From: an uncultured Parcubacteria group bacterium
GTDB lineage: Bacteria > Patescibacteriota > Minisyncoccia > UBA6257 > 2-01-FULL-56-20
Length of the DNA stretch: 57,758 nt
Reading direction: 5' to 3'
Assembly: GCA_903911245.1 (NCBI GenBank)
Contig: CAIWCR010000028.1
Span: 1-57,758 of the forward strand
This document shows, piece by piece, positions 37,221 to 55,136 of this stretch (positions are counted from its first letter, which is position 1; each line of letters starts with the position of its first letter). The position numbers and the translations under genes are program-made. The notes beneath the pieces were generated by a model, which was not told where the DNA came from, searched no databases, and saw only the letters and a list, made by a program, of their open reading frames with translations.

Positions 37221-37321
37221 TTCAGGATAGGCAAATTTGGGGTGGTAAATTCATTCTTATTAAGAATGAAAGACCAGCGCACAAGTTCACTGGTCTTTCG
37301 TGTTTGCAAAAAACTAACTCG

Positions 37322-37615: not shown

Positions 37616-37766
37616 TTTTTGGATTTGCGAATTAGCCCATACGAGTTATACTGATTATAGCCCGTATGGGTCGTGGGATATCGGGCGACCGATTAACGAT
37701 GGGACACCGATTTTTCCACTATTGTTTTTTTCAAGAGGTCTGGATTTACGTCCGGACCTTTTGAGT

Positions 37767-38135: not shown

Positions 38136-38441
38136 ATATTTTTTAATATTATTTTTGTTTCGACTCCTATATTATAGATTAGTTTTTTATAAAATGCAAG
38201 CTCTAGTTTCTTTAAAAAACCGCGCATGACTCACTGGCGTACCCTATAATTGCGCCATTCTTATAACTATAACGTACAAATAAATCCAAACGTTACGTTC
38301 GGTTTTATAATTTAAAACGCTAAAAGTCTATTGAATGTCATGGTTTCAATTAGACAGCCTATTATCACCGCTTCATTCTTAATTTCCCTACTTTTGAAAA
38401 ATGTGGGAAGAATATTTTGAATGAGACGCGAAGTGATATTT

Positions 38442-38846: not shown

Positions 38847-38862
38847 TTATAAATCAATCGCG

Positions 38863-39372: not shown

Positions 39373-39391
39373 TGTAGAAAGATGGTGAAAT

Positions 39392-40006: not shown

Positions 40007-40180
40007 GGGATAGAAATTAATGGATTAATATCTAAAGGATAGATCAAAACTAGCCGATAGTCGATCTGTCATGTTATTGTTTACCAGGTGTGGGTTTTAA
40101 AACCTGTGTATTACTCGATCTTGATCAAATAATGTCTTTGTGATAGGATTTCTATAAATGATTTTAATTTTATTAACACA

Positions 40181-41455
40181 ATGACTTCAAGGAATAAAGG
40201 GACGGATAAGGAGCTTCGGGTGGTAGAGCTTTTTGCAGGAGTCGGCGGGTTCCGGCTCGGGCTTTGCGGTACTGCTAAAAAACCATTCAAAGGATATAGG
40301 ATTGTTTGGGCAAATCAATGGGAGCCTTCTGGTCGCACCCAGCATGCTGCTATGGTTTATTCCGAGCGATTCCATAACGGGGCAAAACCCAACGAATATT
40401 TTAATGAGGATATAAACAAGGTTGTCGAGATTAAAAATTTTCCAGTTCCGGACCATGATTTATTGGTCGGCGGCTTCCCCTGTCAGGATTATTCAGTCGC
40501 CCGGACATTGAGTCATGCTGCGGGTATCGAAGGGAAAAAGGGTGTTCTCTGGTGGGCAATCCATAAGATTCTCCAAAGGAGGGCGCCTCAGTATGTCATG
40601 CTGGAAAACGTCGATCGCCTCTTAAAATCTCCGGCTTCCCAGCGAGGGAGGGACTTCGGTATCATACTAGCTTCCTTATCCGATCTCGGGTACGCCGTGG
40701 AATGGCGGGTTGTGAACGCTGCAGATTATGGAATGCCCCAACGCAGGAAAAGAACTTTTATTCTGGGCTATAAAAAAGGAACTTCTCTCTATAATAAACT
40801 GACCCATGCAAAACCACTGGACTGGCTAACCAAAGACGGCGTCGTCGCTGATGCGTTCCCAGTAAGGGATTTTGAAGTTGCTTTCATTCCTCGATTCATA
40901 GAGATAGAAGGAAGCCTCGATGAAGTTTCAAAAAAATTCAAATTCTCCTTTGAAAACTCCGGCCTTATGTTTGGACGGAAATTTATAACTACTAAAACGA
41001 CGCCTCATGATTATGAGACGACAACTCTCGGCTCAATTCTGCTTCCTATTGAAGCGGTTCCAAAAGAATTTTTTATCTCAAAAAGTGAACTGGCCCAATG
41101 GAAGCGTCTGAAAGGTAGTAAAAAAGAAATTCGTTCTTCGAAAAACGGCTTTACTTACACTTACGCCGAAGGATCAATGGCTTTTCCTGATTATCTCGAC
41201 CGACCGTCACGCACTATCGTGACGGGAGAAGGAGGCCCCTCACCTTCCCGCTTTAAGCATGTTATAAAACAAGGAATCCATTATCGAAGACTTGCTCCAA
41301 TTGAGCTTGAACGTCTTTGTATGTTTCCGGACAATCATACCTCCTATCCCGGGATAGGAGATGCAAAGCGTGCATTTTTTATGGGTAATGCCCTAGTTGT
41401 CGGCGTTATCGAAAGACTCGGCCAATCTCTTCTAAAAGCCAATAAAAATCTCTAG
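40181..41455 (+). CDS. dcm: DNA (cytosine-5)-methyltransferase
   Basis: Motif I ELFAGVGGFRLGL, motif IV GGFPCQDYS, motif VI MLENVDRL, motif VIII QRRKRTFILG, motif X GNALVVGV. Confidence 0.93.
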   Translation: MTSRNKGTDKELRVVELFAGVGGFRLGLCGTAKKPFKGYRIVWANQWEPSGRTQHAAMVYSERFHNGAKPNEYFNEDINKVVEIKNFPVPDHDLLVGGFPCQDYSVARTLSHAAGIEGKKGVLWWAIHKILQRRAPQYVMLENVDRLLKSPASQRGRDFGIILASLSDLGYAVEWRVVNAADYGMPQRRKRTFILGYKKGTSLYNKLTHAKPLDWLTKDGVVADAFPVRDFEVAFIPRFIEIEGSLDEVSKKFKFSFENSGLMFGRKFITTKTTPHDYETTTLGSILLPIEAVPKEFFISKSELAQWKRLKGSKKEIRSSKNGFTYTYAEGSMAFPDYLDRPSRTIVTGEGGPSPSRFKHVIKQGIHYRRLAPIELERLCMFPDNHTSYPGIGDAKRAFFMGNALVVGVIERLGQSLLKANKNL

Positions 41456-41702
41456 TGCTCTATCTATTAGTTTATTAATTTGTTCTGCAATGCCAAAGAA
41501 CTTTTAGTTTTAATATGGATAAGGCAAAGCCTTTGCCCATAGCCCATAGAAAGCCGGCTCCACACTATAAAAACCACGCCTAGACCAAAATTTGTGGCTT
41601 AATCACCATTCAAAAACGAGCATAAGTTCTAAATTTGTAATATTCAACCAAGGGGACTTTCCATATTTCCGAAAAAGAGTTTTAGTTAGCTCTAATCGAA
41701 AT

Positions 41703-41849
41703 ATGAAAAAAGATAATAATAAATTTGCAAAACTCTGCCGAAAAATAATCGAGCATCTTAACCATTGTGAGGTATTCGAGAAAGAAGAAGAGGAAATGAT
41801 GAAATTAGCAAAAGAGCTTCTGATTGTCACATCAAAACAAATAGATTGA
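41703..41849 (+). CDS. Small hypothetical protein (48 aa)
   Basis: The ATG at 41703 gives MKKDNNKFAKLCRKIIEHLNHCEVFEKEEEEMMKLAKELLIVTSKQID, followed by the hairpin repeat. No homology was recognised. Confidence 0.3.
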   Translation: MKKDNNKFAKLCRKIIEHLNHCEVFEKEEEEMMKLAKELLIVTSKQID

Positions 41850-41858
41850 GAATTTTCA

Positions 41859-41899
41859 GTTTTTCGGTTTTTCTTTCCCTAGGGAAGCGGAAAACCGAA
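41859..41899 (+). repeat. Hairpin element copy A (terminator-like), related to 51021..51065
   Basis: TTTTCGGTTTT...TTCCCTAGGGAA...AAAACCGAAAA, with an 11-bp outer and a 5-bp inner stem. It lies 10 nt after a plus-strand stop codon. Confidence 0.6.
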
Positions 41900-41931
41900 A
41901 AGCTAGTATCTATCGGATTTCCGTTTTTACC

Positions 41932-42180
41932 TTACTGTTCCCTATCCCCTCCTTCCTTTCTCATGAGATATATCATCCATGCGTAATCAAGTGGAATATA
42001 CTCAATAATATATCCGTTTTCGCACTTTGCTGAACATTCTTCAACGATTTCTAGGACATCGTGTTGCTCGTCCATTGTTAGCTTCTTACCTATATGCTTC
42101 TCGAGTTCGATAATCAAATGGTCCAACATTGCCATCTCTTCTTGTACGGCCGTCTTCTTTTGCAGTTTGAAGAACATCAT
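41932..42180 (-). CDS. Hypothetical protein (82 aa)
   Basis: Last ORF of the XRE-ImmA-SppA minus-strand block. No motif was recognised. Confidence 0.4.
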   Translation of the reverse strand: MMFFKLQKKTAVQEEMAMLDHLIIELEKHIGKKLTMDEQHDVLEIVEECSAKCENGYIIEYIPLDYAWMIYLMRKEGGDREQ

Positions 42181-42254
42181 CCAAGATGTATTTGGGAAGC
42201 ATGTCTTTAAGTTTGATTTTCTTTTGTCGTTTATTCATAAGGCTTTGTTACAAA

Positions 42255-43070
42255 TTACTGGCACAACGTAACATCTTCCCCTATTTTTCCCTTGAGATAA
42301 TTTTGAACGTCATAAATATTTCCGATTTTATCAATCAGCTTGTTTTGTAGTGCCATCTTACCGAGCATCGAAGAACCATCAGCAATTGTGGTTACGCTTG
42401 CCACGGAGAGATTGCGATTCCGTGCTACGGAACTGATGAAGTTCTGCATCATGATATTAAGATCTCGCTGAAATAATGCCTTTTCTTCTGTTGTAAGCGG
42501 GGTATCTGGATTCCCGGCATCTTTATACTTCCCGGCAGTAAGTGAAACGAACGTCTGACCATTTTGTTCATTTTGTTTAACATTATCAAGATATGATTGC
42601 GTAACTCCGATATCAACGAGGGTTGAATTTGCGGACGCAAAGATCGTTTCTGCGCCTGTTGCAGCCCAATAGGCTGCTGATGTGCCCATGTCTCCCACAA
42701 GAGCTACGGTTGGCTTGTTGGCATGTTTCAATGCGGTTGCAATATCTTCTCCAGCCACCGGGTTTCCGCCAAATGAATCAATGTGCAAAACAATGGCTTT
42801 GATATTTGGATCAGCATCCGCCATCTCAATCTGCTGGCGTATATCTTCGGAGGCTGTCTGATTGAGCGTGTTTGATGCGTCGTTGCCGTTTTCATTCGGA
42901 TAATAGACGACCGAACCGTAAAGCTGTACCACTGCTACATTGCAACTTTTTGGTTGCTGGTTCCAATATTCAGAAAGACTAATGACGCCACCAATAAGAA
43001 TGGCGAGGGCGACTAGTCCAAGAACCGTAACCATCAAAGATTCTTTTGTTGATTGAAGATTGAATTTCAT
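42255..43070 (-). CDS. sppA: Signal peptide peptidase SppA-type (S49) serine protease, membrane anchored
   Basis: N-terminal TM helix, IKAIVLHIDSFGGNPVAGEDI, and GDMGTSAAYWAATGAETIFAS (catalytic Ser context). Confidence 0.8.
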   Translation of the reverse strand: MKFNLQSTKESLMVTVLGLVALAILIGGVISLSEYWNQQPKSCNVAVVQLYGSVVYYPNENGNDASNTLNQTASEDIRQQIEMADADPNIKAIVLHIDSFGGNPVAGEDIATALKHANKPTVALVGDMGTSAAYWAATGAETIFASANSTLVDIGVTQSYLDNVKQNEQNGQTFVSLTAGKYKDAGNPDTPLTTEEKALFQRDLNIMMQNFISSVARNRNLSVASVTTIADGSSMLGKMALQNKLIDKIGNIYDVQNYLKGKIGEDVTLCQ

Positions 43071-43098
43071 ATTTTAAGGGATAATGAATTTAAGTTTT

Positions 43099-43608
43099 TT
43101 ATTTTATAAGTTTCAGATTAATAAGTCTGAAATTCATAGCTTGTTCGCTCACGCCATATTTTTTAGCAAGGACTTTTAAATGCTTTGTTGAAAAATCGCC
43201 TTTCACTATTTTTCGAAAATCTTTTTCCATATTTGTCTTTGGCATTAAAATTGCCGCTGCATATCTGTCGGCTTCTTTCTCTTTTATATTTCTTAACGGT
43301 TTATCACTTGGATTTCTGTGTTCGAGATAATCGACAAATGCTTTTTGCGTATGATGCAAGAAAAGATGACCCAACTCGTGAGCAATCGTGAATCTTTGTC
43401 TCGTTACTGCTTCTTTGCTGTTGAGTCCTATTAATGCCTCACCTTTTTTTCTAATAAGGAGACCAGAAAATTCTTCGCTTGGTGCACGACTTATGCGGAT
43501 ATTACATTTTTTTGCAATATCTTCTACGGGAACGGGAATTGATTCAATAGCAAGAGATTGCAATAGTTCATCAGCCTTATTTTCAATGCGTTGTATTATT
43601 TTATCCAT
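43099..43608 (-). CDS. ImmA/IrrE-family (M78) metallopeptidase
   Basis: HELGHLFLH (HExxH) in a 169-aa protein. It overlaps the upstream XRE gene by 8 nt. Confidence 0.85.
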   Translation of the reverse strand: MDKIIQRIENKADELLQSLAIESIPVPVEDIAKKCNIRISRAPSEEFSGLLIRKKGEALIGLNSKEAVTRQRFTIAHELGHLFLHHTQKAFVDYLEHRNPSDKPLRNIKEKEADRYAAAILMPKTNMEKDFRKIVKGDFSTKHLKVLAKKYGVSEQAMNFRLINLKLIK

Positions 43609-43960
43609 GATTTTTGAAAAGATCTTTTGCCCACATTACTGCCTTCTCATCTTCCTTGGCTATTGATTGTAAATCGATTTTACTGAGGGAAAAACCACGA
43701 GGAATTATTGGAAAGAAGTTTTCTGTTTTACATCCGAGGAGGCAGGCAAGTTTCCATAAAAGTACCGCGTTGACGTTATTTCTGCCCGTTTCGATTTGTG
43801 TCAGTGCTTCACGGGTCATGCCCAACTCTGCCGCCACTCGTGCTGCGCTATGATTCTGTTTCTTTCGTATCTCCTGAACCTTTCTTCCGATTCCCTTTTT
43901 TATTTCGGAATCGGGTGATGTCCACTCCTTATTTATTGTACCCTTCTTTTTTGTTTTCAT
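43601..43960 (-). CDS. XRE-family helix-turn-helix transcriptional regulator
   Basis: IGRKVQEIRKKQNHSAARVAAELGMTREALTQIETGRNNVNAVLLWKLACLLG. The start is set at ATG 43960. Confidence 0.85.
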   Translation of the reverse strand: MKTKKKGTINKEWTSPDSEIKKGIGRKVQEIRKKQNHSAARVAAELGMTREALTQIETGRNNVNAVLLWKLACLLGCKTENFFPIIPRGFSLSKIDLQSIAKEDEKAVMWAKDLFKNHG

Positions 43961-44000
43961 TTTATTAAAACGTGCAAAACTTGTTTTATATAGTACCATA

Positions 44001-44017
44001 TGTTACTCACAGTAACA
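44001..44017. promoter_or_regulatory. Candidate operator palindrome in the divergent XRE / M16-operon control region
   Basis: TGTTACT-cac-AGTAACA, with 7-bp perfect arms, about 40 nt upstream of the XRE start and about 85 nt upstream of the M16 gene. Confidence 0.4.
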
Positions 44018-44100
44018 AATGACACATCTAATTCCGTTGCTATTTCGAGAAGATATAACCATACTTAAGAAGTTGAATGAAGAAAATAAGATAAGCTTCA

Positions 44101-45354
44101 ATGAAAATAAACGAAACAGTAAGAAAAGACGGACTTCGCATCATTACATGTCATGTTCCTCAAAAAAAGACCGTTCTTGTGGAACTTATTGCTCGAGTTG
44201 GTTATGCATGCGACCCAATTAATAAGCCAGGTCTTTTTCATACACTTGAACACATGGTATTTGAAGGAACGGAAAAACGTACTGCAAAGGAATTATCGGC
44301 ATTTGCCTCCAAAAATTTTTTTGGCAACAATGCTTCAACTGGGACACTTGCAACGACCTATGAGGTGACAACGATAGATAGAAAATTTCCACTGGCGTGT
44401 GAGTATCTTTGCGATATTTATTTCAATGCGACGATACCCGTCCCAGGACTGAAAAAAGAAAAAGGGCCTATCTTACTCGAAATCGCAAGAAAAAAGGATT
44501 CTGACAATTCCATCGGAAGCATGGCCTTGAATGAGTGTTTATACAAGGAAAATCCATCTCGTTGCGATGGCGTCGGTACTTCGGCCGGAATAGGAAGAAT
44601 TCATCGTGCCGATCTTATAGATCAAAAAAATAAATGGTATATTCCCTCGAATACCATTGCGCTTGCGGTCGGAAACATAAATCATGACGATTTCGTAAAA
44701 GAAATAAACAAGCGAATTCCGTTGTCCTTGAAAAAAGTTTCTTTATGCCAATGGGGCGACGAAGCGAACGATCCTCCTGTAAAAAAGGAAATGATCATTA
44801 AAAAACCGAAGCGCGAGAAAACAATGCTTTTTCTTGGATGTAAAATTCCCAAAAATCTTGATGTACGACAGGAGGAAGCATTTTCTTTGTTTAGTAAATT
44901 AATTGGCCGTGGATTCGATTCACCCCTCTGGCATGAAATTAGGGAGAGAAGAGGCTTGGCATATAGTATTCAAAGTAACTATTCTGGAATCGCCGGCTTG
45001 AGTAGTAGATTTATCGTATACGCTGAGACGAGCCAGTCAAAATCGTCACAAGTCGAAAAATTGATATGGCAGGTACTTGTGAAGCCTCTTCCTGATAATG
45101 GCAAATTCGAGGAATTAAGAGAGAAGGTATTTAATGCGTTTGAGGTGGATGTTATTGAAAACAACGAACTCGATTACTTCGAAGGTCTTATATGGAAAAA
45201 GATAGTCGATGGAGATCCGGTAAAAATGGCGGAACAGGAAGATAAAAAACGCCTTAAGGCGATTGCCAGTCTTTCGCTGAAAGATCTTGAAGCGGTTCGG
45301 AAGCAATTTATTCGTCCAGAGCGATTCGCGAAAGTTCTTATAGAACCAGAATAA
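44101..45354 (+). CDS. M16 (pitrilysin/insulinase) family zinc peptidase
   Basis: LFHTLEHMVFEGTEKRTAKEL contains the inverted zinc motif HxxEH. 417 aa with two M16 lobes. Confidence 0.8.
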   Translation: MKINETVRKDGLRIITCHVPQKKTVLVELIARVGYACDPINKPGLFHTLEHMVFEGTEKRTAKELSAFASKNFFGNNASTGTLATTYEVTTIDRKFPLACEYLCDIYFNATIPVPGLKKEKGPILLEIARKKDSDNSIGSMALNECLYKENPSRCDGVGTSAGIGRIHRADLIDQKNKWYIPSNTIALAVGNINHDDFVKEINKRIPLSLKKVSLCQWGDEANDPPVKKEMIIKKPKREKTMLFLGCKIPKNLDVRQEEAFSLFSKLIGRGFDSPLWHEIRERRGLAYSIQSNYSGIAGLSSRFIVYAETSQSKSSQVEKLIWQVLVKPLPDNGKFEELREKVFNAFEVDVIENNELDYFEGLIWKKIVDGDPVKMAEQEDKKRLKAIASLSLKDLEAVRKQFIRPERFAKVLIEPE

Positions 45355-45408
45355 TGTTTTGTTTTGTTAATTATTAAAGAGTCGAAACAAAAATAATCAA
45401 TATCGATC

Positions 45409-46320
45409 ATGAGAGAACCCATTATCAGCGATCAAGATTTTATAAGGCGTCTTTCGGAAGAAGAAAGAAAGCACGCAGGGTTTATTTCGACAAAAGAGAT
45501 TTTCCCTTTGGTTTGCGAACATGCGGCGCTTTTGGAGAGCGGTATAAAACCTGTCGGCGCCATCCCGACGGGTTTTATAAAACTGGACAAAGCGCTCATC
45601 GGATTGAAAAAAGCGGATCTTATCGTTGTCGGCGCAGAACCTTGCGTAGGAAAGACTGCCTTTGTTCTTAGTCTTGCGGAGAATATGGCGCATAAGGGGA
45701 TGAAGGTTGGAATCTTTTCTCTCGACACGTTAAGAGAAAAAATAATGCAGCGGTTAATAGCGATTCGAACATCAATTCCATTATGGCGCATCGTCACTGG
45801 TCGGTTAAATAAGGGCGACATGAAGCGTATTGAGCAATGCGCCGAGAGTTTCAAGAAGTTACCATTATATATCGACGACGAGACAGATCTTGATGTTTTG
45901 GAACTACGTTCAAGAGCGACTGAACTTAGGGATAAAGATGGATTGGATTTTTTGATAGTGGATTGTTTTCAGTTTATCCGTTCATTTGATAATGAACCCC
46001 ATAATCTAAACAGGGTCGCTTGTGGTCTCAAAATGATTGCCGTTGAATTGAATATCTCCATTGTTATTACTTTGAATATGGAACGAAAGCAATCCGATCA
46101 TCACTTTCCGAATTTTCACGACATCCGCCAATGGTCACTGGATCGATATGCGGATGTTGTATTAATGCTTCGTCAAAGTAATCAATTTGAGGTCGATGGA
46201 TCCATACGACCGATTGACATCTTTGTTTTAAAGAATAAAAATGGTCCAACAGGGATGGTTGAGCTTGGTTTTGATTACGAGTTGGCGAGTTTCATCGACG
46301 CGGTAGAATCAAAGAAATAA
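45409..46320 (+). CDS. DnaB-family helicase C-terminal (RecA-like) domain protein lacking the N-terminal domain
   Basis: GAIPTGFIKLDKALIGLKKADLIVVGAEPCVGKTAFVLSLAENMA (Walker A), LDFLIVDCFQFI (Walker B), VLKNKNGPTGMVELGF. It aligns by eye with DnaB residues ~180-470. Confidence 0.8.
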   Translation: MREPIISDQDFIRRLSEEERKHAGFISTKEIFPLVCEHAALLESGIKPVGAIPTGFIKLDKALIGLKKADLIVVGAEPCVGKTAFVLSLAENMAHKGMKVGIFSLDTLREKIMQRLIAIRTSIPLWRIVTGRLNKGDMKRIEQCAESFKKLPLYIDDETDLDVLELRSRATELRDKDGLDFLIVDCFQFIRSFDNEPHNLNRVACGLKMIAVELNISIVITLNMERKQSDHHFPNFHDIRQWSLDRYADVVLMLRQSNQFEVDGSIRPIDIFVLKNKNGPTGMVELGFDYELASFIDAVESKK

Positions 46321-46330
46321 CATAATTAAT

Positions 46331-47089
46331 ATGTCTCAATACTATAAGCCACAAAAAACAAGAAATCTTTTTGATCCAAAGTCAAAAGAGCCTTTTGTGG
46401 TAAGCCGAAGCGGAATCGATCTCTTTATACAATGTCCGCGATGCTTTTATCTCGACAAGAGGCTTGGCACCGCACGACCACCGGGATTCCCCTTCAGTTT
46501 GAATTCTGCCGTAGACGCTCTTCTCAAAAAAGAATTTGACATGCATCGAGCTAAGGGATCGACCCATCCGCTTATGGAAGAATATGGTATTGATGCCGTA
46601 CCTCTCGCAGATGAGAGACTTGATGAGTGGCGTGATTCATTAAGGAATGGGATAAAATATTTTCATGAACCAACGAATCTTATAATTCGTGGCGGTATTG
46701 ATGACGTATGGACAAGGCCAAACGGAGAATTGTATATCGTGGATTATAAAGCAACGTCAAAAAACGAAGAGGTTAACCTTGATGCCGAATGGCAAGATGG
46801 CTACAAACGACAAATGGAAGTGTATCAGTGGCTTTTCCGAAAAAATGGATTCAAGGTGTCAAATACGGGATATTTCGTTTATTGCAATGGAGATACCGAT
46901 AAAGAAGCGTTTGATGCCAAGCTCGAATTTGATATCAAAGTTATTCCTTATGAAGGCAATGATGAATGGATCGATGGCGTCATAACGGATTTGCACAAAT
47001 GTTTAATGGAAAAGAGTGTTCCGCGAGCGAAAGATTCCTGTGATTATTGTGCTTATTTCGAACGCCGGGCGTATCATGAGAAAAAATAA
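46331..47089 (+). CDS. Cas4/RecB-like PD-(D/E)XK nuclease with 4-Cys cluster
   Basis: N-terminal CPRCFYL, core GGIDDVW...LYIVDYKAT, C-terminal CDYCAY. This is the Cas4/AddB-type arrangement of one N-terminal and three C-terminal cysteines (the third Cys is not unambiguously placed). Confidence 0.65.
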   Translation: MSQYYKPQKTRNLFDPKSKEPFVVSRSGIDLFIQCPRCFYLDKRLGTARPPGFPFSLNSAVDALLKKEFDMHRAKGSTHPLMEEYGIDAVPLADERLDEWRDSLRNGIKYFHEPTNLIIRGGIDDVWTRPNGELYIVDYKATSKNEEVNLDAEWQDGYKRQMEVYQWLFRKNGFKVSNTGYFVYCNGDTDKEAFDAKLEFDIKVIPYEGNDEWIDGVITDLHKCLMEKSVPRAKDSCDYCAYFERRAYHEKK

Positions 47090-47109
47090 AAAATTTAATT
47101 AATTTAAAA

Positions 47110-47736
47110 ATGTCGAACAAATATTTTTTACAACTTGAAAAAGAATTCGGAAAATATGGTAGCTGGGCTTTGTGGGATAAGGACGGTAAAATTGAGCCAT
47201 TTGTTCAAATAAAAAATTCCGTACGTTTCATAAAAGATTCTATTAATCCGAATATTGTTTTTATGGGATTAAATGCTAGTCGTGATTTAAAAAAAGAAAT
47301 CGATTGGGCAAATTATCACTCAGATTTGAAACCTAAAAAGGGACGAACATGGAAGAAGGCTTCTTGTCGCAGGTTAGCAGAAATTATCCAACAGAAAGAG
47401 TTTTTTCCGTTTCGGGGTGCATATATGACCGATATTATTAAAACCAGATACGATTCGACAAGTGGAAAACTCAAAATATTTCTTAAGACTCATAAAAGCA
47501 TTCTTAACAAGAATAAAAAACTACTTGAAAGAGAGATGAAAATGCTTCAGAAAATTTCTGGTTCAAATAAATTTGTAATTATCTGCATTGGTGATGATAG
47601 TTTTGAAATTACTAAACAAATATTGGGAACGAATGAGAATTTATATAAAATTCCACATTATGCGATGCGTGGAATTGATGATGAAATAAGAGAAAAAATA
47701 CAACAAGGGCTAATAAAAATAATTAAGAAGCTATGA
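47110..47736 (+). CDS. Uracil-DNA-glycosylase-superfamily-like protein (tentative)
   Basis: The motif order is reminiscent of the UDG fold: IVFMGLNAS (motif A-like), GAYMTDIIK, FVIICIGDD, IPHYAMRG (motif B His). The call is weak. Confidence 0.35.
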   Translation: MSNKYFLQLEKEFGKYGSWALWDKDGKIEPFVQIKNSVRFIKDSINPNIVFMGLNASRDLKKEIDWANYHSDLKPKKGRTWKKASCRRLAEIIQQKEFFPFRGAYMTDIIKTRYDSTSGKLKIFLKTHKSILNKNKKLLEREMKMLQKISGSNKFVIICIGDDSFEITKQILGTNENLYKIPHYAMRGIDDEIREKIQQGLIKIIKKL

Positions 47737-47916
47737 TTCTGTTTCCGCGAACTCTTTTGGATTCATCCTGCGATATCTGATTTTGTTCTCGATTAAATGG
47801 ATGATACATCCGTCATTACTACAATTCGAGCTAGGGCATTTTGCGCAAGTCGGAACGAGGCATGAATATCTTTTTATGTTTTCTTCCCCCAAGTTTATCA
47901 AGCGACATCATTGTCT

Positions 47917-48183
47917 TTATTGGTTATTTCTATCTTCATTTATTGAATTCTGCTTAGATTGTACGGGCTTAATTCCTGCGCTCCATTTCCATACTTTCAC
48001 AGCCAACCAAGCCCCCGCAAGACCTCCTGTGATTTCTCCGATGGAAATTATTGCCTGCATTGTTTCTGCTGAGGAGTTCTCAAACATGAGACCGAGACAC
48101 AAGACAACACTAACGGTAATTATTTTCCCGGCTACGACAAAAGTAATAAGACCACCGATCAAACCAATTATTTTTTTCACCAT
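47917..48183 (-). CDS. Small membrane protein (88 aa, 2-3 TM helices)
   Basis: Hydrophobic segments IIGLIGGLITFVVAGKIITVSVVLCLGLM and ISIGEITGGLAGAWLAV. It lies downstream of the nuclease-like gene on the same strand. Confidence 0.5.
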   Translation of the reverse strand: MVKKIIGLIGGLITFVVAGKIITVSVVLCLGLMFENSSAETMQAIISIGEITGGLAGAWLAVKVWKWSAGIKPVQSKQNSINEDRNNQ

Positions 48184-48272
48184 TTATTTTTCTATTTTTA
48201 ATTTTTCCGACCTTTACCACCGCATCGAGCTAATTAAAAATCGGTTTTGTAAAAAAGAAAACAAATCTGTCG

Positions 48273-48803
48273 TTATATGTGGTTTTCGTTCGTTTTCTCT
48301 CGGAGTATCTTTTGTGCCATAGCCATTGGGTCTTTACTAAAAACTATATCCCAGCGGTTTTTTAACTTTTTCAATTCTGGCAGTTCCTTCTCGAGCCAAA
48401 AAACTCTTTTGCCTTTTTCTATCGTCTGTTTGGACTTCTTTGATCGTTTAAGAAATTTCTTATACTCATTCTCCACTTTCTGATTCAATAGGTTTTTAGG
48501 AATTATGTAATATTCAATATGCTGATTTTCAGGAATGGAATGGACGGCTACAAATATATAAAATGACCTACCCCATTCTTTCTTTACTTGGAGAGGCCTG
48601 CTGCCCATCTGCCAACTATTCTCAGTTAATTCAACGGTTCTTGTTTTAACTTGTATATCAACGGAGTCATATTCATTGCTTGCAACGATATCCACTCCTG
48701 CGGTGTTTCTCAGGGTAACAGCAGCAATGAAGCCTCGCCGTGAAAGCTCCCCTGCTACAAAATATTCCCCTGCTATTCCTGAAAAAATTTGTTTCGTTTT
48801 CAT
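48273..48803 (-). CDS. PD-(D/E)XK nuclease-fold protein (DUF4365-like N-terminal domain)
   Basis: GIAGEYFVAGELSRRGFIAAVTLRNTAGVDIVASNEYDSVDIQVKT has the G.GE...L...G / D-I-V / QVK pattern. The start is set at ATG 48803. Confidence 0.5.
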   Translation of the reverse strand: MKTKQIFSGIAGEYFVAGELSRRGFIAAVTLRNTAGVDIVASNEYDSVDIQVKTRTVELTENSWQMGSRPLQVKKEWGRSFYIFVAVHSIPENQHIEYYIIPKNLLNQKVENEYKKFLKRSKKSKQTIEKGKRVFWLEKELPELKKLKNRWDIVFSKDPMAMAQKILREKTNENHI

Positions 48804-49111
48804 TGGATACAAAAAACCCATCACGTGAGCGATGACTCCGAAGAGTCACCCATAGCCCTTTCGAGCTATGACCTGTTGAAGATGCTCCCACATGATGGGG
48901 TCTTTTTCTTCAACAGGATTTTTGCCATGCCAAACGGTTGTTTGGTTTAGGCAATGCTATTCAGTTGTAATTTTAGAATATCACGATTATAGAAAATTCG
49001 GAATGCTCCGTCCAAGGCTTTTGAAAAAAACAAAAAGCAAACAAAATACAAATATTTGACTCATGAAAACGATTATTTTTTTATATCGATTTTTTCCACA
49101 AGCTCTTTCTC

Positions 49112-49139
49112 TTGACTAGCGAATCTAGTGCGATATACT
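49112..49139 (+). promoter_or_regulatory. Sigma-70-like promoter inside the element's 0.9-kb non-coding region
   Basis: TTGACT (49112..49117), 16-nt spacer, TATACT (49134..49139). Confidence 0.5.
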
Positions 49140-49288
49140 ACCGAAGTAGGTGGCTCTTGAGAAAAAAGAAAAGAGCAGATCCATTGAAAAGTCCAGACCT
49201 TGGGCGAGGACGTTGCGGGTAGCGAATCATCCGGTGAACTCCTAATATACTTGGAGAGTAGAGCCATGATTGTGAGGATGAGGAGTTA

Positions 49289-49371
49289 GGGCTGCAAACT
49301 AAAAAGCGAGTACATAATCAAATCAACAGGTCGTTGTTTGTGTATTCACTTTTCGGTTTGCGGCCCTTTTT
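49289..49371 (+). terminator. Long imperfect hairpin plus T5 (terminator/attenuator or 3' end of a ~230-nt RNA)
   Basis: GGGCTGCAAAC (49289..49299) pairs with GTTTGCGGCCC (49356..49366). The stem continues inward (AAAAGCGAGTACA / TGTATTCACTTTT). It is followed by TTTTT. The G-U pairs exist only on the plus strand. Confidence 0.5.
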
Positions 49372-49601
49372 GATAAATATCTCCAGAGCACCGCTCTAAA
49401 TTGAAAGAGCAGAGCTCTCAAAAACTTAAAAGCATTATAGCTTCTCGGTTCCCTACCCTTACGGACAAGGAATCGAACAAGCTGTTTTTTGACCTGAACG
49501 AACTCAGTGATTTTTTGGTACGCCTATTTATTAAGCATCAGAAAGGAAGGGGTCCTCCCGAATGAGATGCAAATGGGCTGAAATAAATAAATTTTTAAAT
49601 A

Positions 49602-49754
49602 ATGCAAAAGAAACAAAAAAGACGGGCGAACAAAAAAGCCCGAAAAGAGGTTAAGGATTCTTTAAAGAGTGAGTACGAGATGGTCGGTGAGGTAGTCGAA
49701 CAAGATAAACATATTTTGAATGCGATGAGCATTCTACTAACAGAAAATGAATAA
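49602..49754 (+). CDS. Small basic protein (50 aa), possible accessory/DNA-binding factor
   Basis: The ATG at 49602 gives MQKKQKRRANKKARKEVKDSLKSEYEMVGEVVEQDKHILNAMSILLTENE. Its stop overlaps the start of the next gene by 8 nt. No SD is visible. Confidence 0.3.
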   Translation: MQKKQKRRANKKARKEVKDSLKSEYEMVGEVVEQDKHILNAMSILLTENE

Positions 49755-51018
49755 AATAGAAATATTAAATATATTAAATCGCGACAAGATTCTCCGTGGC
49801 GAATCTGCGGGAGACGTGGCAATCCAATGTCCGTTTTGTAGGGCTGTCACAGCGACAGGAGAAAAATATCTCACGATGATTATCAATTCTGATACTGTTA
49901 GAAGCTACTGCGGAGAGTGTCGCAAATCAGTTAGTTTTGATGAGCTTCTTGAGGTTCTGGAAATAAAAACGAGTCCTACGTTATCGAAATCGGAAGCAGG
50001 GTTGCAATTATCAAAGACGGAGCTGTCCATCGGGACGGAAGAATATGAAAGTAACCGATTCGTGCCGGAGAACCATCGGAACCTTGTCGCATCCGGCATT
50101 ATGGAAATCGAATGGCTTGTCGAGAATATCGTGGCAGTCGAAGGCTATACATTAATTTCCGGTGCCCAGCAGTCAGGGAAAAGTCTAATTGCCCTCCTGC
50201 TTGCGAATACGGTAACCACGGGCAATCCCCTTTTTGGAAAATTTGTAGCAAAAAAGGGAAGGGTTCTTTTTGTCGACGAGGAAAACGGAAGGACGAGGCT
50301 GGCTGCACGTACAAACCTCCTCGGGATTCCGGCTGAATGCGAGATAGAATATCTGATTAATAAGAGCATTATGGTCGACTCCCTGAAAGATCTTACAAGA
50401 CTGGTGGCTCTTTGTCAGAAGAAAAAATATTCTCTTATCATCTTTGACTCGCTGGTTAGATTCTTCAGAGGCAATGAGAATGAGGCTGGTGTCATGTCTG
50501 AAGTGAATCGATGCTTTAATGCTCTTAGGGCTACCGGCGCAGCTATTGTGGCGCTTGCTCATAACAAGAAATCGGGATTTGACGGAGCTTCTGAATTAGG
50601 AAGTATGGTTCGCGGCTCATCGGAGATTGTTGCCGCTCCCGACTGTCATATCGCCCTTAAGAAGATAAAGAATGTCATCGAGGTTCGTCAGCCGAAATTC
50701 CGCGATGGCGATCCATTCCACCCTTTCAAGCTGAATATTATTGGGGATAAGACGTTTATCAAAATTACTTATGATGGACAGTTAGATGAGGAGAAATCAA
50801 AGAAAGAAGAAACGGCAGATGCAGTCGTCAGTCTTTTACAGGAAGGTGAATTGCCGAGAGATGTCATCGTCGAAAAATTGAAGGATATTGCAGGAGAAGG
50901 CGTTATTGGAAAAGTTCTCACCGAACTTCTTAAGACAAAAGCGATACAGCGCCGGAGTGGAGATAATAATAAGCATTTCTATTCGCTGATGGAAGAATCC
51001 GCGGACGAACAGGTGTAG
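49747..51018 (+). CDS. RepA/AAA_25-type RecA-like ATPase with N-terminal zinc ribbon and C-terminal winged-helix-like tail (element replication protein)
   Basis: CPFC...CGEC zinc ribbon, Walker A ISGAQQSGKSLIAL, Walker B-like RVLFVDEENG and LIIFDSLVRF. 423 aa. Confidence 0.65.
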   Translation: MNKIEILNILNRDKILRGESAGDVAIQCPFCRAVTATGEKYLTMIINSDTVRSYCGECRKSVSFDELLEVLEIKTSPTLSKSEAGLQLSKTELSIGTEEYESNRFVPENHRNLVASGIMEIEWLVENIVAVEGYTLISGAQQSGKSLIALLLANTVTTGNPLFGKFVAKKGRVLFVDEENGRTRLAARTNLLGIPAECEIEYLINKSIMVDSLKDLTRLVALCQKKKYSLIIFDSLVRFFRGNENEAGVMSEVNRCFNALRATGAAIVALAHNKKSGFDGASELGSMVRGSSEIVAAPDCHIALKKIKNVIEVRQPKFRDGDPFHPFKLNIIGDKTFIKITYDGQLDEEKSKKEETADAVVSLLQEGELPRDVIVEKLKDIAGEGVIGKVLTELLKTKAIQRRSGDNNKHFYSLMEESADEQV

Positions 51019-51020
51019 TT

Positions 51021-51065
51021 TTTTGGTTCTTCCTTCCTTAGGGAAAGAAAAAACCGAAAAACCAG
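51021..51065 (+). repeat. Hairpin element copy B, related to 41859..41899
   Basis: TTTTTGGTTCTTCCTTCCTTAGGGAAAGAAAAAACCGAAAAAC is 34/43 identical to copy A in the same orientation. It also lies directly after a plus-strand stop codon. Confidence 0.6.
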
Positions 51066-51145
51066 AAATCCCACACAAAATCGGAAATTATTTTGTTTTC
51101 CAAAGAACTAGAGGTTTAATTAGGGCATAAATAAAAATTAAGTCA

Positions 51146-52780
51146 ATGGAGCGTACCGCATTACAAATTGCAAAAGAAGTCATAACGGAGAGCTATATTA
51201 AAAGCTGCTATTATGCGCGCGTCTCCAGTGACGAGCAAAAAGAGAATGAGACCATTGAAAGCCAGAAGAATGAAATAAAGAAAGTTATTGCTGAAAATGG
51301 AGAGAAGTTGGTTCGGGAATATATTGACGATGGCGTCTCTGGGGCGTTATCGCACAGGCCGGCATTGGACCGGCTTCGTGATGATGCGAAGCTCGGAGTA
51401 TTTAATAAGGTTTATATCCTCTCCCCCGATCGTCTCTCTCGAGAATTATTTTTACAACTTGTGGTCGTAAAAGAATTACAGGCCTATCGCATCGAAATTG
51501 TTTTTCTAAGTCAAAAATTTGGAACAAGCTCAAGTGATAAGCTCTTATTTCAGATGCTTGGAGCGGTTTCCGAATTCGAGCGGGCGCAGATTTTGGAACG
51601 TACGAGGAGGGGGCGCAGATATAAGGCAGAGATTCGGCAGGAGTTTGTCGGATATCAGCCACCTTACGGATATAGCTATACAAGGAAAGAAAAAAGTTCC
51701 GATGGTCGGGGAAGTATTGAGATAGACGACAATGAGGCGAAGATCGTCAAGATGATGTTCCAATGGGTAAGCGAAGGAATGTCAGCAAGGAATGTAGTGA
51801 AGCAACTGACAGCGATGAGGGTTCCCACGAGGAGAGGAGGAGCAACATGGCGGAACAGTTCCGTCTTTAGGATTCTAAAGAGGTCTGAATATCTAGGTAC
51901 GTTTTACTACAATCGTGTGGAATGTATAGAGACTGCAAATCATCGCACGGAGGAAAAATATCGTACAAGTTCCAAGACGGGGAGGGCGTTACGACCGAAG
52001 AATGAATGGATAACGATACCTCTCCCCCATCTCCGACTTATCTCCGACAGCCTTTTTTGTTCCGTACAAGAACAGCTCAAAAAGAACATCGCGTTCTGTA
52101 AGCGCAATGCAAAAATGGATTATCTGCTTTCTGGCGCAATGATGAAGTGCCAGAAATGCGGAAGTTCGTATTTCGGAAATACCATGCACAGCAAGCCGTT
52201 TTATTCGGACAGTAATAAGAGGAATAAATTTCCTCTTATAAGAGACTGCGATGCTCCTTCTGTTTCTGCTCCGCGTATTGAGATTCTTGTATGGGACACT
52301 ATCGTTGAGCTTCTCAATAATCCAGATCTTTTCAAAAAATACTTAAAAGAGACAGTCGTTACTAATGCTGAAAAACCACAGGAGCTGACCATCCTGGAGA
52401 ATCAATTAAAAAATCTCCAGACGGAGGAGGACAGAATCATACATGGCTATCAGAAAGGACTTATAACTGATGAAGTAAAGATTAAGAGCATTATCCAGAA
52501 AATCAAAGAGGATAAAAAATTAACCTCCGAAAATATTGCGAGGATTAATGGACGAGCTGGGAAGAAAAAGAAATCTCAATTGCCCAAGAGCTTGAAGGGT
52601 GTTTGTCGGATGGTGCGGAGGCGACTAAAACAACTGGACTTTGAAGGTAGGCGGCAGCTTATCCGAGAATTGGTCAAAGAGATTTTGTTCGACGGAAAGA
52701 AAGTCGTAATACGAGGATATCTCCCCTCTCCTACGGGAAACTTAACAAGGACGGAGTTTGAGATCGGCAAAAAGATTTAA
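51146..52780 (+). CDS. Large serine recombinase (integrase)
   Basis: The resolvase domain has the catalytic Ser context YYARVSSDEQ. A recombinase domain, a zinc ribbon (CQKCGSSYFG) and a coiled-coil region follow. 544 aa. It ends 130 bp from attR. Confidence 0.92.
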   Translation: MERTALQIAKEVITESYIKSCYYARVSSDEQKENETIESQKNEIKKVIAENGEKLVREYIDDGVSGALSHRPALDRLRDDAKLGVFNKVYILSPDRLSRELFLQLVVVKELQAYRIEIVFLSQKFGTSSSDKLLFQMLGAVSEFERAQILERTRRGRRYKAEIRQEFVGYQPPYGYSYTRKEKSSDGRGSIEIDDNEAKIVKMMFQWVSEGMSARNVVKQLTAMRVPTRRGGATWRNSSVFRILKRSEYLGTFYYNRVECIETANHRTEEKYRTSSKTGRALRPKNEWITIPLPHLRLISDSLFCSVQEQLKKNIAFCKRNAKMDYLLSGAMMKCQKCGSSYFGNTMHSKPFYSDSNKRNKFPLIRDCDAPSVSAPRIEILVWDTIVELLNNPDLFKKYLKETVVTNAEKPQELTILENQLKNLQTEEDRIIHGYQKGLITDEVKIKSIIQKIKEDKKLTSENIARINGRAGKKKKSQLPKSLKGVCRMVRRRLKQLDFEGRRQLIRELVKEILFDGKKVVIRGYLPSPTGNLTRTEFEIGKKI

Positions 52781-52889
52781 TTTTTTAAAATTACAAAATT
52801 TTATTCCAGTGCTATTAGTTAGGCATGGCATTATCTGACGAGACAGTGCAAGAAATACACAAGAAATCCAAAAAGCGGAGCAGTTGAAG

Positions 52890-52930
52890 TTAAATAGCGA
52901 CCCCAACATTAGAACGTTATGACCACCGGA
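52890..52930. other. attR junction (element half-site + AG + host half-site)
   Basis: TTAAATAGCGACCCCAACATT-AG-AACGTTATGACCACCGGA, with AG at 52911..52912. Confidence 0.7.
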
Positions 52931-53572
52931 CGCAGCAATAGTAAGCGCGCGTTTTGCATTTTCTTGACCTTTGATTTCAGAAAAGTCCGGCGTTGTATTT
53001 TTCACTATCCCCTCTTCCTCGAATACTTTTGGTATTATATTTTTCTTTTCCTCCAAAAACGCGATGGCATCACCAAGATTTTCCAAAGGAATTATTTTTA
53101 TATTTTTTACGACCGCTGCCTCATTTGCATTTTTTGCCGGAAGAAAAATATATTTAAAATGTAATCCTGCTGCCATTTGTGCAGCGCTCAATGCTCCACT
53201 TATTGGACGAAGTCGTCCATCAAGTGCGAGCTCCCCTAAAAATATTTTATCGCGTGTTTCAAATTCATTTATTTGTTTTGTCGCAAGAAGATATCCGACG
53301 GCAATTGCGAGATCATACTGCGATCCCGCTTTTTTCACATCGGCCGGAGCGAGGTTGATAGTAATTTTTCTATTCTCTCTATTTGGTGGTTTTATGTTGG
53401 AATTTTTAAGTGCAGAATTTACTCGTTCCTTCGCCTCGTTAAGAGCCTTGTCGGCGAGACCAACAATATTAAAAGCATGGAGACCAATATTGAGATCGGC
53501 TTCGACTTCAATGAGTCGAGCATCAATCCCTTCGAGTTCTGCGGAATATACTCGCGCAAGATTTTGTATCAT
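52913..53572 (-). pseudogene. comM: comM/yifB 5' portion (220 native codons); the ORF then runs 56 codons into element DNA (to 52742)
   Basis: MIQNLARVYSAELEGIDARLIEVEADL...DLAIAVGYLLA...LGELALDGRLRPISG (Lon-protease-like ChlI N-domain) ...DFSEIKGQENAKRALTIAASGGHNV, then the non-homologous tail LMLGSLFNFNCS... Confidence 0.9.
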
Positions 53573-53675: not shown

Positions 53676-54011
53676 TTATTGAGATTCTGTTTTGCAGTTT
53701 TTACAATAACGAGATTCTGGGTCTATGTCAAGTATCGATGATTCTATTTTTTCAGAACACTTCTCGCAGAGACCGTACTTTTCAGAGCGAATTTTTTCGA
53801 GAGCACTATCGATTTCATTAAGTCGATTTTTTAGATCATTGATCACCGCGAGTCGGTTTCCAAAATCTTCAGTCTTATCAGATTCATCAGATTCATCATC
53901 GGGCTCGCTTCCAAAATCGACGGGAGTCTCATTTTGTTTTATTTCCGAAACGCAAAGTAATCGTTCTTTCTCGAGTGCCTCTTTATATTCTTTTATTTTT
54001 TCTTGATTCAT
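53676..54011 (-). CDS. DksA/TraR-family C4 zinc-finger protein
   Basis: Coiled-coil N-terminus and CEKCSEKI...CKNC at the C-terminus. The start is set at ATG 54011. Confidence 0.75.
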   Translation of the reverse strand: MNQEKIKEYKEALEKERLLCVSEIKQNETPVDFGSEPDDESDESDKTEDFGNRLAVINDLKNRLNEIDSALEKIRSEKYGLCEKCSEKIESSILDIDPESRYCKNCKTESQ

Positions 54012-54255
54012 AATACCTGAAAGAATAGTGTTTTTAAAAAAGGAAGTCAATTTTATCCACTTTTCTAAAATGTATTGATATGGCCGAATGGCCGCGCGAT
54101 GAGTATTGGTGAATTCTGAACTCGCAGATATTTCCCATTAGGGTGGCGAATTTTATCATTTTTTAATCATTTTTTAATGAAAATTTAATATATGGATGAA
54201 TATAATAAAATTGTCCTCAGGTTCGACATTATCCGAAAAACGTCAACAAAATGGC

Positions 54256-54350
54256 AGTATAAATTTCCGGAATATTTCCGGAAATAATCCGGAAATTGCC
54301 GGATTATGGATTGCCGGATTATTTTGCCTGATTCGCGTTTGCCGGATTCG
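54256..54350. repeat. CCGG-centred short repeat block
   Basis: (T/A)TCCGGAA units at 54265, 54276 and 54287 (TTCCGGAA, TTCCGGAA, ATCCGGAA), including the 14-bp palindrome TATTTCCGGAAATA (54273..54286). These are followed by four direct repeats TTGCC(G/T)GATT at 54296, 54311, 54324 and 54339. Confidence 0.8.
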
Positions 54351-54397
54351 GCGTTTTAGAGGTCAGAAACGCCGTCATTGCTAGTGATAAACATTTT

Positions 54398-54720
54398 TGT
54401 TTGTCTAAAATGTTTGTCGACAAACATTGTTTGTCGGCAAACATTGTAATTTAGCGAAACAGGCATTTATGCTAAATTATGAGGGTTTTATCTATATTAT
54501 CGACTATTTTGCCTGATGGTATCCCAATGGCATTGTTTGTCGACAAACAATGCCATTGGGGAAGTTGAAATGTTTGTCGGCAAACATTTCAACTTTTGGT
54601 CGTTTTTCGTGTTGGCAATGTTTGTCGGCAAACATTGCCAACACATGAATAGTCAGAAACGCCGTCTTTTCTAGAAAAAACTGACTTTTCTATTTTCAAA
54701 TGTTTGTCGACAAACATTTA
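54398..54720. repeat. Array of six TGTTTGTCGRCAAACA palindromes with variable self-complementary flanks
   Basis: Cores start at 54411, 54428, 54534, 54571, 54619 and 54701, plus a half-site at 54398. The extended palindromes are 20, ~22, 38 (perfect), 34, 36 and 22 bp. Confidence 0.9.
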
Positions 54721-54755
54721 TTATTAGTAATAATCATATTGCCGAGTATATAAAT

Positions 54756-55136
54756 ATGACAAACAAGACGGAGATCGGATTGCGAGGAGAGAATTTGGCG
54801 TGCGAGTTTCTTGTACGGAAAAAATATAAAATTCTAAAAAGAAACTATCGCGAAAAATTTGATGAGATTGATATTATTGCCAGGGCAATAAATGGAACGC
54901 TTGTTTTCTGCGAAGTGAAGACGCTTTCTCAGAAAGTTGATTTTAAGAACGTACTCACGCCGGAAGATAATATGACGAAAGAAAAAATCAAAAAGATAAA
55001 ACGATCATCTGAAATGTTTGTTGGTAAGCATCAAGACTTAATAATTGAAAAAGTCGGTTGGCAAATTGATTGTATTGTAGTCGTGATTAATGAAGAGAAG
55101 GGGAGTCATGAACTCCGTCATTATGAAAATATATAA
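54756..55136 (+). CDS. yraN: YraN-family (UPF0102) PD-(D/E)XK endonuclease-like protein
   Basis: GLRGENLACEFLVRKKYKILKRNYREKFDEIDIIA...LVFCEVKT is the family signature. Confidence 0.85.
   Translation: MTNKTEIGLRGENLACEFLVRKKYKILKRNYREKFDEIDIIARAINGTLVFCEVKTLSQKVDFKNVLTPEDNMTKEKIKKIKRSSEMFVGKHQDLIIEKVGWQIDCIVVVINEEKGSHELRHYENI

Follow-up and report, generated by a model that had tools for sequence, protein, structure and literature searches.

What is the function of an array of short palindromes lying upstream of yraN in an uncultured bacterium of the Parcubacteria group? The array is located in contig CAIWCR010000028.1, the whole of which (57,758 bp, hereafter the window) was analyzed. It comprises six exact TGTTTGTCGRCAAACA sites starting at positions 54411, 54428, 54534, 54571, 54619 and 54701 (span 54411-54716). 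An earlier note, made from the letters alone, had reported these six 16-nt cores and their 12/16 identity to canonical parS, the chromosomal binding site of ParB. All six were present where it had placed them, and the four mismatches to parS fall at positions 6, 7, 10 and 11. When up to two mismatches were allowed, the same six sites were the sole matches in the 57,758 bp, compared with 0.07 expected from shuffled sequences, and none of 100 shuffles equaled the count. The generic pattern TGTTTNNCGNNAAACA with at most one mismatch also identified these six sites and no others in the window. Four contigs from other samples carry an identical region, and therefore the sequence is not an assembly artefact. 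The array sits in a 705-bp intergenic gap (54051-54755) between yraN and a divergent DksA/TraR-like open reading frame (ORF). On the evidence given below we lean, if only slightly, towards regarding it as a variant of chromosomal parS used by the Candidate Phyla Radiation (CPR, or Patescibacteria) and as a candidate loading array for a ParB-family protein.

The distribution of the sites was analyzed by scanning one genome per GTDB species with the 18-mer ATGTTTGTCGRCAAACAT. Twenty-nine loci were found (loci are given numbers with the prefix L). The 12 non-CPR matches were single copies inside ORFs of unrelated bacteria. The remaining 17 belonged to Saccharibacteria, Paceibacterota, Parcubacteria, Colwellbacteria and unclassified Patescibacteria, and were mostly intergenic arrays of 2-11 sites; in 15 of the 17 the array was directly upstream of a yraN homologue. 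Long contigs reached via YraN homologues supplied further arrays (L183, L188-L190, L192), as did a metagenome scan (L074, L112). Judged by the YraN matches with the most informative names, the organism of the window falls within Paceibacterota/Minisyncoccia. Overall, about 20 CPR genomes have 1-11 such sites directly upstream of yraN, and, of 19 CPR array loci that were compared, 17 have yraN beside the array. The relatives therefore do conserve the array, a point on which the earlier note had made its proposal depend, and they conserve it at the same position across CPR.

The opposite flank is formed by a dksA-like gene followed by comM in about half of the CPR loci (8-10), as in the window, and a dksA-like homologue adjoins the array in 10 loci. 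Two types of synteny could be distinguished. In type A, the dksA-like gene and then comM are transcribed away from one side of the array and yraN, nusA and infB from the other; in type B, an RNHCP gene is transcribed away from a region of DnaA boxes and array sites, with yraN diverging from it. An exception is L040, where the array is upstream of nusA and there is no yraN. Apart from yraN, dksA-like, comM, nusA and RNHCP, no conserved gene that could encode the binder was found beside the arrays. The complete 808-kb chromosome of a member of Saccharibacteria contains a single matching locus, and elsewhere there is one array per contig in the conserved syntenic position. Spacing of the units in CPR arrays is irregular (17-135 bp, with modes at 37 and ~51 bp), and an exact 37-bp period was found in L035 and L056. 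The former, a contig of 2.4 kb (RFLC01000268.1), was assigned to a 'Candidatus Pacearchaeota archaeon' bin, yet it has the bacterial CPR synteny of yraN, array and dksA-like gene; it is probably mis-binned, being near-identical to the Saccharibacteria locus L056. The intergenic regions of L035, L056, L049, L074 and L058 share another short motif close to their arrays, (A)TGTCGCAAAA(T), which is absent from the window.

This distribution bears on the possibility of a mobile repeat. The palindromic repeats and their variable flanks could suggest a repetitive extragenic palindrome (REP), a miniature inverted-repeat transposable element (MITE) or a guide array of the CRISPR or TIGR (tandem interspaced guide RNA) type; CPR are indeed known to have TIGR arrays of stem-loops whose palindromic edges vary (PMC12045711). 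The earlier note had named dispersal of the motif over many intergenic sites as the mark of a REP/MITE-like element. Instead, it is found at one locus per contig, in constant synteny across CPR classes. Only scattered single chance matches to the 16-mer, with no tandem copies, were detected in IMG/VR, and neither the region nor any array had a match among the plasmid and phage records of PLSDB and INPHARED. The single-locus distribution and the absence from viral and plasmid sets therefore speak against a REP/MITE-like element. As to guide arrays, there is no cas or tas (Nop-domain) gene among the neighbors, the spacing is irregular, and the conserved part corresponds to the apex of a stem and not to box C/D-like motifs with spacers. 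Overall, we find a mobile repeat or a guide array scarcely credible.

Comparison of 82 CPR sites revealed that positions 1-5, 8-9 and 12-16 are essentially invariant and that variation is confined to positions 6, 7, 10 and 11. The consensus is TGTTT-NN-CG-NN-AAACA, with an invariant central CG. Classed by positions 6 and 7, the half-sites of these 82 sites include GT (85), GC (30), AG (24), CA (13) and GG (5). CA is the half-site of canonical parS (TGTTNCACGTGAAACA). None of the window sites is within two mismatches of that sequence. In the Saccharibacteria locus L042, two perfect TGTTTCACGTGAAACA sites are interleaved with TGTTTGTCGGCAAACA and the hybrid TGTTTGCCGTGAAACA; five hybrid sites are present in L058 and others in L046 and L052. 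At the level of the sites the kinship with parS thus goes beyond a 12/16 identity, canonical and hybrid forms being part of some CPR arrays; the protein side of the proposal did not fare as well, and no ParB was found in the DNA searched.

As a control, metagenomes were scanned for pairs of TGTTTNNCGNNAAACA sites separated by 12-42 bp, which yielded at least 120 loci. All sites were canonical in 111 of the 120 control loci listed, and soj or spo0J was present in the fetched stretch in 77 of them, at a median distance of 113 bp from the nearest site. The tandem parS sites upstream of parAB in these loci are spaced by 35-50 bp, typically ~39 bp. The control scan therefore indicates that tandem parS upstream of parAB is an ordinary bacterial pattern, which the CPR arrays resemble. 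The resemblance to parS/ParB (Spo0J) systems comprises the 16-bp palindrome with identical outer TGTTT/AAACA and central CG, the tandem arrangement, a single cluster per genome within ~50 kb of dnaA, sporadic long outer palindromes, and a copy of the site inside the coding sequence of an adjoining gene, which in CPR is yraN. The in-yraN site recalls Bacillus subtilis, where spo0J carries parS inside its coding sequence. Regular tandem units with one short palindrome each are also known from sopC of the F plasmid (43-bp units, each with a 16-bp inverted repeat). Its sequence is unrelated, however, and the CPR array is chromosomal and syntenic, without adjacent sopAB or parAB and without a plasmid match.

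Two non-CPR loci demonstrated that the variant itself can occupy the position of parS. In L176 (166-222), two copies of TGTTTATCGACAAACA are located between rsmG and parA, and in L191 (10479-10535) the order is dnaA-rnpA-yidC-gidB-TGTTTGTCAATAAACA-parA-parB; no canonical parS was found in the 17.8 kb of the L191 origin region. The lineage is uncultured and near Methylomirabilota/Binatia; its YidC shares 58% identity with proteins of Methylomirabilota, Binatia and Tectomicrobia. Hence another phylum employs the same variant (GT/AT) at a genuine parAB locus. The helix of the L191 ParB reads GLDRSSIANALRLL, its counterpart in B. subtilis Spo0J being GKSRPHIANHLRLL. Within CPR, contig L086 (= L186) contains ~15 perfect canonical parS sites in 1 kb (1044-2035), ~1 kb upstream of dnaA. 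The cluster is in non-coding DNA beside a tRNA gene, and the DnaA encoded by the contig shares 81% identity with a protein of Candidatus Moranbacteria. This Moranbacteria-like cluster therefore shows that CPR use dense parS arrays.

A number of observations weigh against parS as the identity of the array. Firstly, neither the window nor the ~330 kb of CPR DNA around the arrays yielded a homologue of ParA or ParB. The search was performed by tblastn with Spo0J and Soj queries, which did match the 77 control loci, followed by hidden Markov models built from 54 ParB and 67 ParA control sequences (E <= 1). The earlier note was accordingly right that the window has no parAB, no ParA or ParB homologue being present among its proteins. 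There was also no parAB within 10 kb of the Moranbacteria-like dnaA. The RecA of L117 resembles that of a Saccharibacteria locus, which is uninformative for the ParB search. Secondly, CPR arrays are never beside parAB, unlike 77 of the 120 listed control loci, and none of the canonical-parS loci is beside yraN; association with yraN and never with parAB suggests a gene-specific regulatory role. Thirdly, positions 6 and 7, which are CA and strongly conserved in canonical parS, are the most variable ones here. Fourthly, the array can be lost. In L185 synteny is intact and the array is replaced by an inserted ORF, with CCGGCAAT repeats and everted half-sites remaining, and some other relatives retain just one or two sites.

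Two further points, at odds with a simple centromere, concern the relation of the sites to yraN. Asymmetric sites share an orientation with respect to this gene (25 versus 5 in 18 CPR loci): the TGTTTGTC (GT) half faces away from yraN and the variable GC, AG or GG half faces towards it. Such a fixed orientation is unfavorable to parS because a symmetric site for a dimer does not need one. In addition, full palindromic sites are present within yraN itself in L042, L049/L074, L050, L188 and L190, at the codons for MF[VA][GA]KH. The codons ATG TTT GTC GGC AAA CAT, for MFVGKH, form such a site; the copy in the window has drifted to TGTTTGTTGGTAAGCA (55015-55030, plus strand, codons M87-H92). Finally, the GC skew places the origin near dnaA and not at the array, as described below.

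The position of the array with respect to promoters points to regulation. TCGACA of site 6, which is proximal to the promoter (54701-54716) and ends 39 nt before the yraN ATG, coincides with the -35 hexamer of the best predicted promoter, TCGACA-16 nt-AATAAT (54707-54734). From the end of the proximal site to the yraN ATG there are 37-39 nt in the window, L188 and L190, and 24-47 nt in most loci. The array fills a divergent promoter region with its last site over the predicted -35, and therefore the bound protein probably modulates the recombination genes on either side. The in-yraN site, the orientation of the sites, the fixed distance to the ATG, the loss of the array in L185 and the absence of parAB likewise suggest that this protein also regulates yraN and probably dksA-comM. 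The earlier note had offered, as an alternative, a multi-operator for a dimeric regulator; this is probably true in part, since the promoter-proximal site is probably also an operator for yraN.

Control of genes by proteins bound at parS has precedents. ParB-dependent control of neighboring genes was described for parS near comCDE in Streptococcus pneumoniae (PMC4488948) and for parS3/parS4 in Pseudomonas aeruginosa (PMC5521831). There, parS is next to promoters, including those of competence genes; the neighbors of the array considered here are the transformation genes yraN and comM. YraN and ComM have been described as a nuclease/helicase pair processing the D-loop of natural transformation (bioRxiv 10.1101/2024.02.06.579203). 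The differences are that the S. pneumoniae and P. aeruginosa sites are single and canonical and that ParB binding to them was demonstrated, whereas regulation in CPR is deduced from position.

It could be argued that the array has nothing to do with ParB and is a cluster of operators for a dedicated dimeric factor of another kind (e.g. CRP/FNR type, 5-N6-5) at the yraN(-nusA-infB)/dksA-like-comM promoters. The strict association with yraN, whatever the other flank, would be explained in this way, as would the fixed distance of the proximal site from the ATG, its overlap with the predicted -35, the lack of parAB nearby and the dispensability of the array in L185. Control of the YraN/ComM pair by such a factor would be in line with their joint role in transformation. 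In L058 a single copy of the site also stands at the head of an RNHCP-X-AlkD-like operon, the same operon that the L044 array faces. The A/T-rich flanks around TGTTT-N6-AAACA recall CRP-type sites. However, up to 11 tandem sites are atypical of a promoter operator, the invariant central CG is unlike a CRP-type spacer, and no conserved regulator gene adjoins the arrays. Perfect canonical parS and hybrid sites within the same arrays, together with the same variant at the parS position beside parAB in another phylum, are also difficult to reconcile with this explanation. We therefore consider a dedicated non-ParB factor unlikely, though a serious contender. Two other types of operator were rejected. 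The LacI/PurR-type site has the opposite polarity of half-sites. The LexA/SOS box, considered in view of the repair and recombination neighbors, does not fit; the LexA motif of Patescibacteria is of the GAAC-N4-GTTC type.

A parallel within the ParB family is KorB of the IncP plasmid RK2. KorB is a repressor whose operators are situated at or near the -35 of promoters. Its operator OB (TTTAGCSGCTAAA) has the half-site TTTAGC, which matches the CPR variant TGTTTAGCGCTAAACA present in L040, L047, L049, L074, L112 and L183. OB differs in being 13 bp long with a central base, and in being plasmid-borne and dispersed as single operators that are not in tandem; no KorB-like gene was found here. It is conceivable, if rather unlikely in our estimate, that a parS/ParB module, or a non-ParB protein that adopted parS-like DNA, has in CPR exchanged the role of a segregation centromere linked to parAB for that of a KorB-like silencing hub at the yraN(-nusA-infB)/dksA-comM promoters. 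In that case one DNA element would couple the state of the chromosome origin with the recombination arm of natural transformation, and the asymmetry in site orientation, the sporadic long hairpins and the in-yraN site would belong to the mechanism.

The sites in the window differ in their surroundings. Site 1 (TGTTTGTCGACAAACA, 54411-54426) pairs across a 1-nt gap with site 2 (TGTTTGTCGGCAAACA, 54428-54443), which has an asymmetric center, and the two fold as a single 17-bp stem; such an adjacent pair is also present in relatives L188 and L190. Site 3 (core 54534-54549) is the center of a perfect 38-bp palindrome, CCCAATGGCAT-core-ATGCCATTGGG (54523-54560), whose 19-nt arms are 100% complementary without gaps. 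Site 4 (core 54571-54586) is within a 34-bp palindrome (54562-54595) and site 5 (core 54619-54634) within a 36-bp one, GTGTTGGCAA-core-TTGCCAACAC (54609-54644); these have perfect arms of 15 and 16 nt, respectively, flanking a non-palindromic TCGG center. At the edge of the array facing the dksA-like gene there is a pair of everted half-sites, GATAAACA-TTTT-TGTTTGTC (54387-54406). The half-site that the earlier note had recorded at 54398 does exist and is one arm of this pair. The pair is conserved in relatives as GAYAAACA-N3-5-TGTTTRYC (L034, L047, L049, L050, L074, L112, L183, L185, L188, L190 and L192). A 67-nt direct repeat with 76% identity between its copies begins with GTCAGAAACGCCGTC (copy 1 at 54362-54428 on the plus strand, copy 2 at 54652-54718). 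A core site closes each of the two copies, suggesting expansion of the array through segmental duplication.

The earlier note had taken the self-complementary outer arms, which differ between sites, as evidence of selection for hairpins. The extended palindromes are real for three sites, and folding of sites 3, 4 and 5 as single-stranded DNA gave -18.9, -14.9 and -18.1 kcal/mol (z ~ -8). Nevertheless, both site 3 and site 5 contain TGGCA(W)-core-(W)TGCCA, and so their arms are not independent. At least seven extra perfectly paired bases per side were found in 13 of 78 CPR sites, spread over at least eight genomes, compared with 0.3% in a null in which left and right flanks from different sites were cross-paired. 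About 80% of CPR sites have no extension. The closest relatives for which DNA is available (YraN 62-65% identical) keep the layout of the array with arms of at most 2 bp; orthologous sites therefore do not have the long arms in common. Canonical parS of ordinary bacteria (metagenome loci L062-L181) is also extended by at least 7 bp per side in 15 of 305 sites, by up to 20 bp, against a null of 0.07%. These data weaken the case for selection. The long outer arms are a lineage-specific add-on, dispensable for the core function. They could have arisen as a mutational by-product of a perfect palindrome, by template switching that extends quasi-palindromes, or may be local facultative hairpins.

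Could the hairpin or cruciform nonetheless be the functional form, as a terminator or insulator, a multi-hairpin RNA, or the target of a structure-specific nuclease such as YraN? The excess of extended arms, the strong predicted stems and the common orientation of asymmetric sites relative to yraN are in favor of this. On the plus strand site 4 is followed by TTTTGGTCGTTTTT, producing a terminator-like match at 54560-54597, and a T-run follows 7 of 15 extended canonical parS sites compared with 57 of 299 short ones. The latter excess suggests that some of the canonical sites are terminators built around parS. A terminator account of the outer arms fits about half of the extended canonical sites and fails for the CPR sites, where no enrichment of T-runs after extended hairpins was found. 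Across CPR phyla the two arms of the core retain their sequence, beyond what mere pairing would require, and most sites, including all those of the nearest relatives, are essentially unextended. The window region and 14 related loci had no Rfam match that reached the gathering score, sub-threshold hairpin noise being the only signal, and YraN of Legionella pneumophila was reported to be a single-stranded DNA nuclease of relaxed specificity. REP, bacterial interspersed mosaic elements (BIME) and terminator hairpins share with the array perfect or imperfect palindromes, variable stems and, at one site of the window, a following T-run; the CPR array differs from them in being undispersed and in having a core whose sequence is kept from phylum to phylum, and the majority of its copies are free of both extended stem and T-run. 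A functional hairpin is, in our view, quite improbable.

The earlier note had placed the array ~53 kb from dnaA, which agrees with our location of dnaA at 1463-2809; without the 16.6-kb insertion in comM described below the distance would be ~37 kb. Cumulative GC skew climbs from ~2 kb to the end of the window without a turn at 54.4 kb, and the skew stays positive even across minus-strand genes. On the related loci of 14-20 kb, local skew merely follows gene orientation. The array region of the window contains one 8/9 DnaA box (TTATCCACT, at 54053) and AT-rich 11-mer repeats (54156-54189). The absence of a skew turn at the array and the presence of only one box there indicate, therefore, that the array is proximal to the origin and is not the origin itself. 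Two DnaA boxes are located just upstream of dnaA (1352/1363; 1352-1371), and a perfect inverted pair of boxes, TTATCCACA-N8-TGTGGATAA, is located at 32128/32145 (32128-32153).

It should be considered that the region might still be oriC or a part of it, with palindromes beside DnaA boxes and an AT-rich unwinding region. Genes diverge at this point, and the box and the AT-rich 11-mers of the window would fit such a role. Perfect or near-perfect DnaA boxes are present beside the arrays of L034, L037, L044, L045, L058 and L035/L056, two or three in some cases, and three of these loci share a conserved block of boxes. Against this are the solitary 8/9 box in the array region of the window, the lack of any box near the arrays of L042, L049 and L050, the skew without a switch at 54.4 kb, and dnaA with its own two upstream boxes 53 kb away. 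An oriC at the array is accordingly very improbable. The shared block is ~50 nt long with two or three boxes (TGTGGATAACTATGGGTATAAC...TGTGGACAAGTG) and is found at ~520-570 in L044, ~390-440 in L045 and ~2100-2145 in L058; it is followed by direct repeats of the parS-like half-sites TGTTTACAC / TGTTTTCAC.

The genes on both sides of the array were identified as follows. yraN (54756-55136, plus strand) encodes a UPF0102 protein, a PD-(D/E)xK nuclease (Pfam PF02021, E = 8e-20). In the window it is followed by iPGM and RNase Y genes. In L034, L035, L040, L042, L047, L049, L050, L056, L074, L183, L188 and L192, nusA (and infB) comes directly after the yraN position; in most bacteria the place right before nusA/infB is held by rimP. 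The DksA/TraR-like zinc-finger gene (53676-54050, minus strand) is divergent from yraN and upstream of comM; a faint zf-dskA_traR match was obtained with a homologue of its product. Between the array and this gene there are TTCCGGAA / ATTGCCGGATT-type repeats (54262-54350), a second conserved cis element. Related CCGGCAAT repeats are in the same place in L034, L049, L050, L074, L112, L183, L185, L188, L190 and L192, so that the ATTGCCGGATT/CCGGCAAT family is kept even in L185, which lacks the array. An AT-rich block is located further towards the dksA-like gene.

comM is split in the window into a 5′ fragment (amino acids 1-223; 52742-53572, minus strand, with the comM half at 52901-53569) and a 3′ fragment (35408-36283) by a 16.6-kb integrated element (~36284-52900), which has a gene for a large serine recombinase at its end (51146-52780). 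ComM, the partner of YraN, is accordingly interrupted in this strain. The cargo of the element includes DUF3800, a BglII-like restriction enzyme with a C5 methylase, S49, M78 (IrrE-like) and M16 peptidases, a DnaB_C helicase, a Cas4-like PD-(D/E)xK nuclease and an AAA_25 protein. A LOOT RNA (RF03000, 85 bits) was also found within it, at 48831-48953 on the minus strand.

We return to the reading favored at the outset, that of a CPR variant of parS. The CPR arrays occupy a conserved position at a single locus, their sites grade into canonical parS, and the same variant stands beside parAB elsewhere. From this we infer that a ParB-family protein may be the binder in this organism, with a role in chromosome segregation or SMC loading and in the control of yraN. 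A helix-turn-helix protein of the ParB family would bind as a dimer to each 16-bp TGTTT-NN-CG-NN-AAACA duplex site; it would load at the array and might spread or slide from it. The loaded array would mark the origin-proximal locus. The set of sites would have relaxed at positions 6 and 7 and moved from parAB to the promoter region of yraN and dksA-comM, where the bound protein would probably also repress or modulate yraN(-nusA) and dksA-like-comM, as KorB does, or as ParB does at some parS sites.

A literature search for the motif string returned cloning primers alone, and no description of chromosome segregation or centromeres in CPR was found in the literature searched. CPR/Patescibacteria constitute a large share of bacterial diversity and almost none of them can be cultured alone. 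The sporadic long perfect palindromes, found in variant and canonical arrays alike, seem to be a general property of parS arrays that merits a study of its own. The CPR arrays also represent a natural experiment in the drift of parS specificity at positions 6 and 7, and they provide an unexpected physical link to the YraN/ComM module of transformation and recombination. For these bacteria, the conserved and readily recognizable TGTTT-NN-CG-NN-AAACA array upstream of yraN is a concrete candidate for a centromere or ParB loading site.

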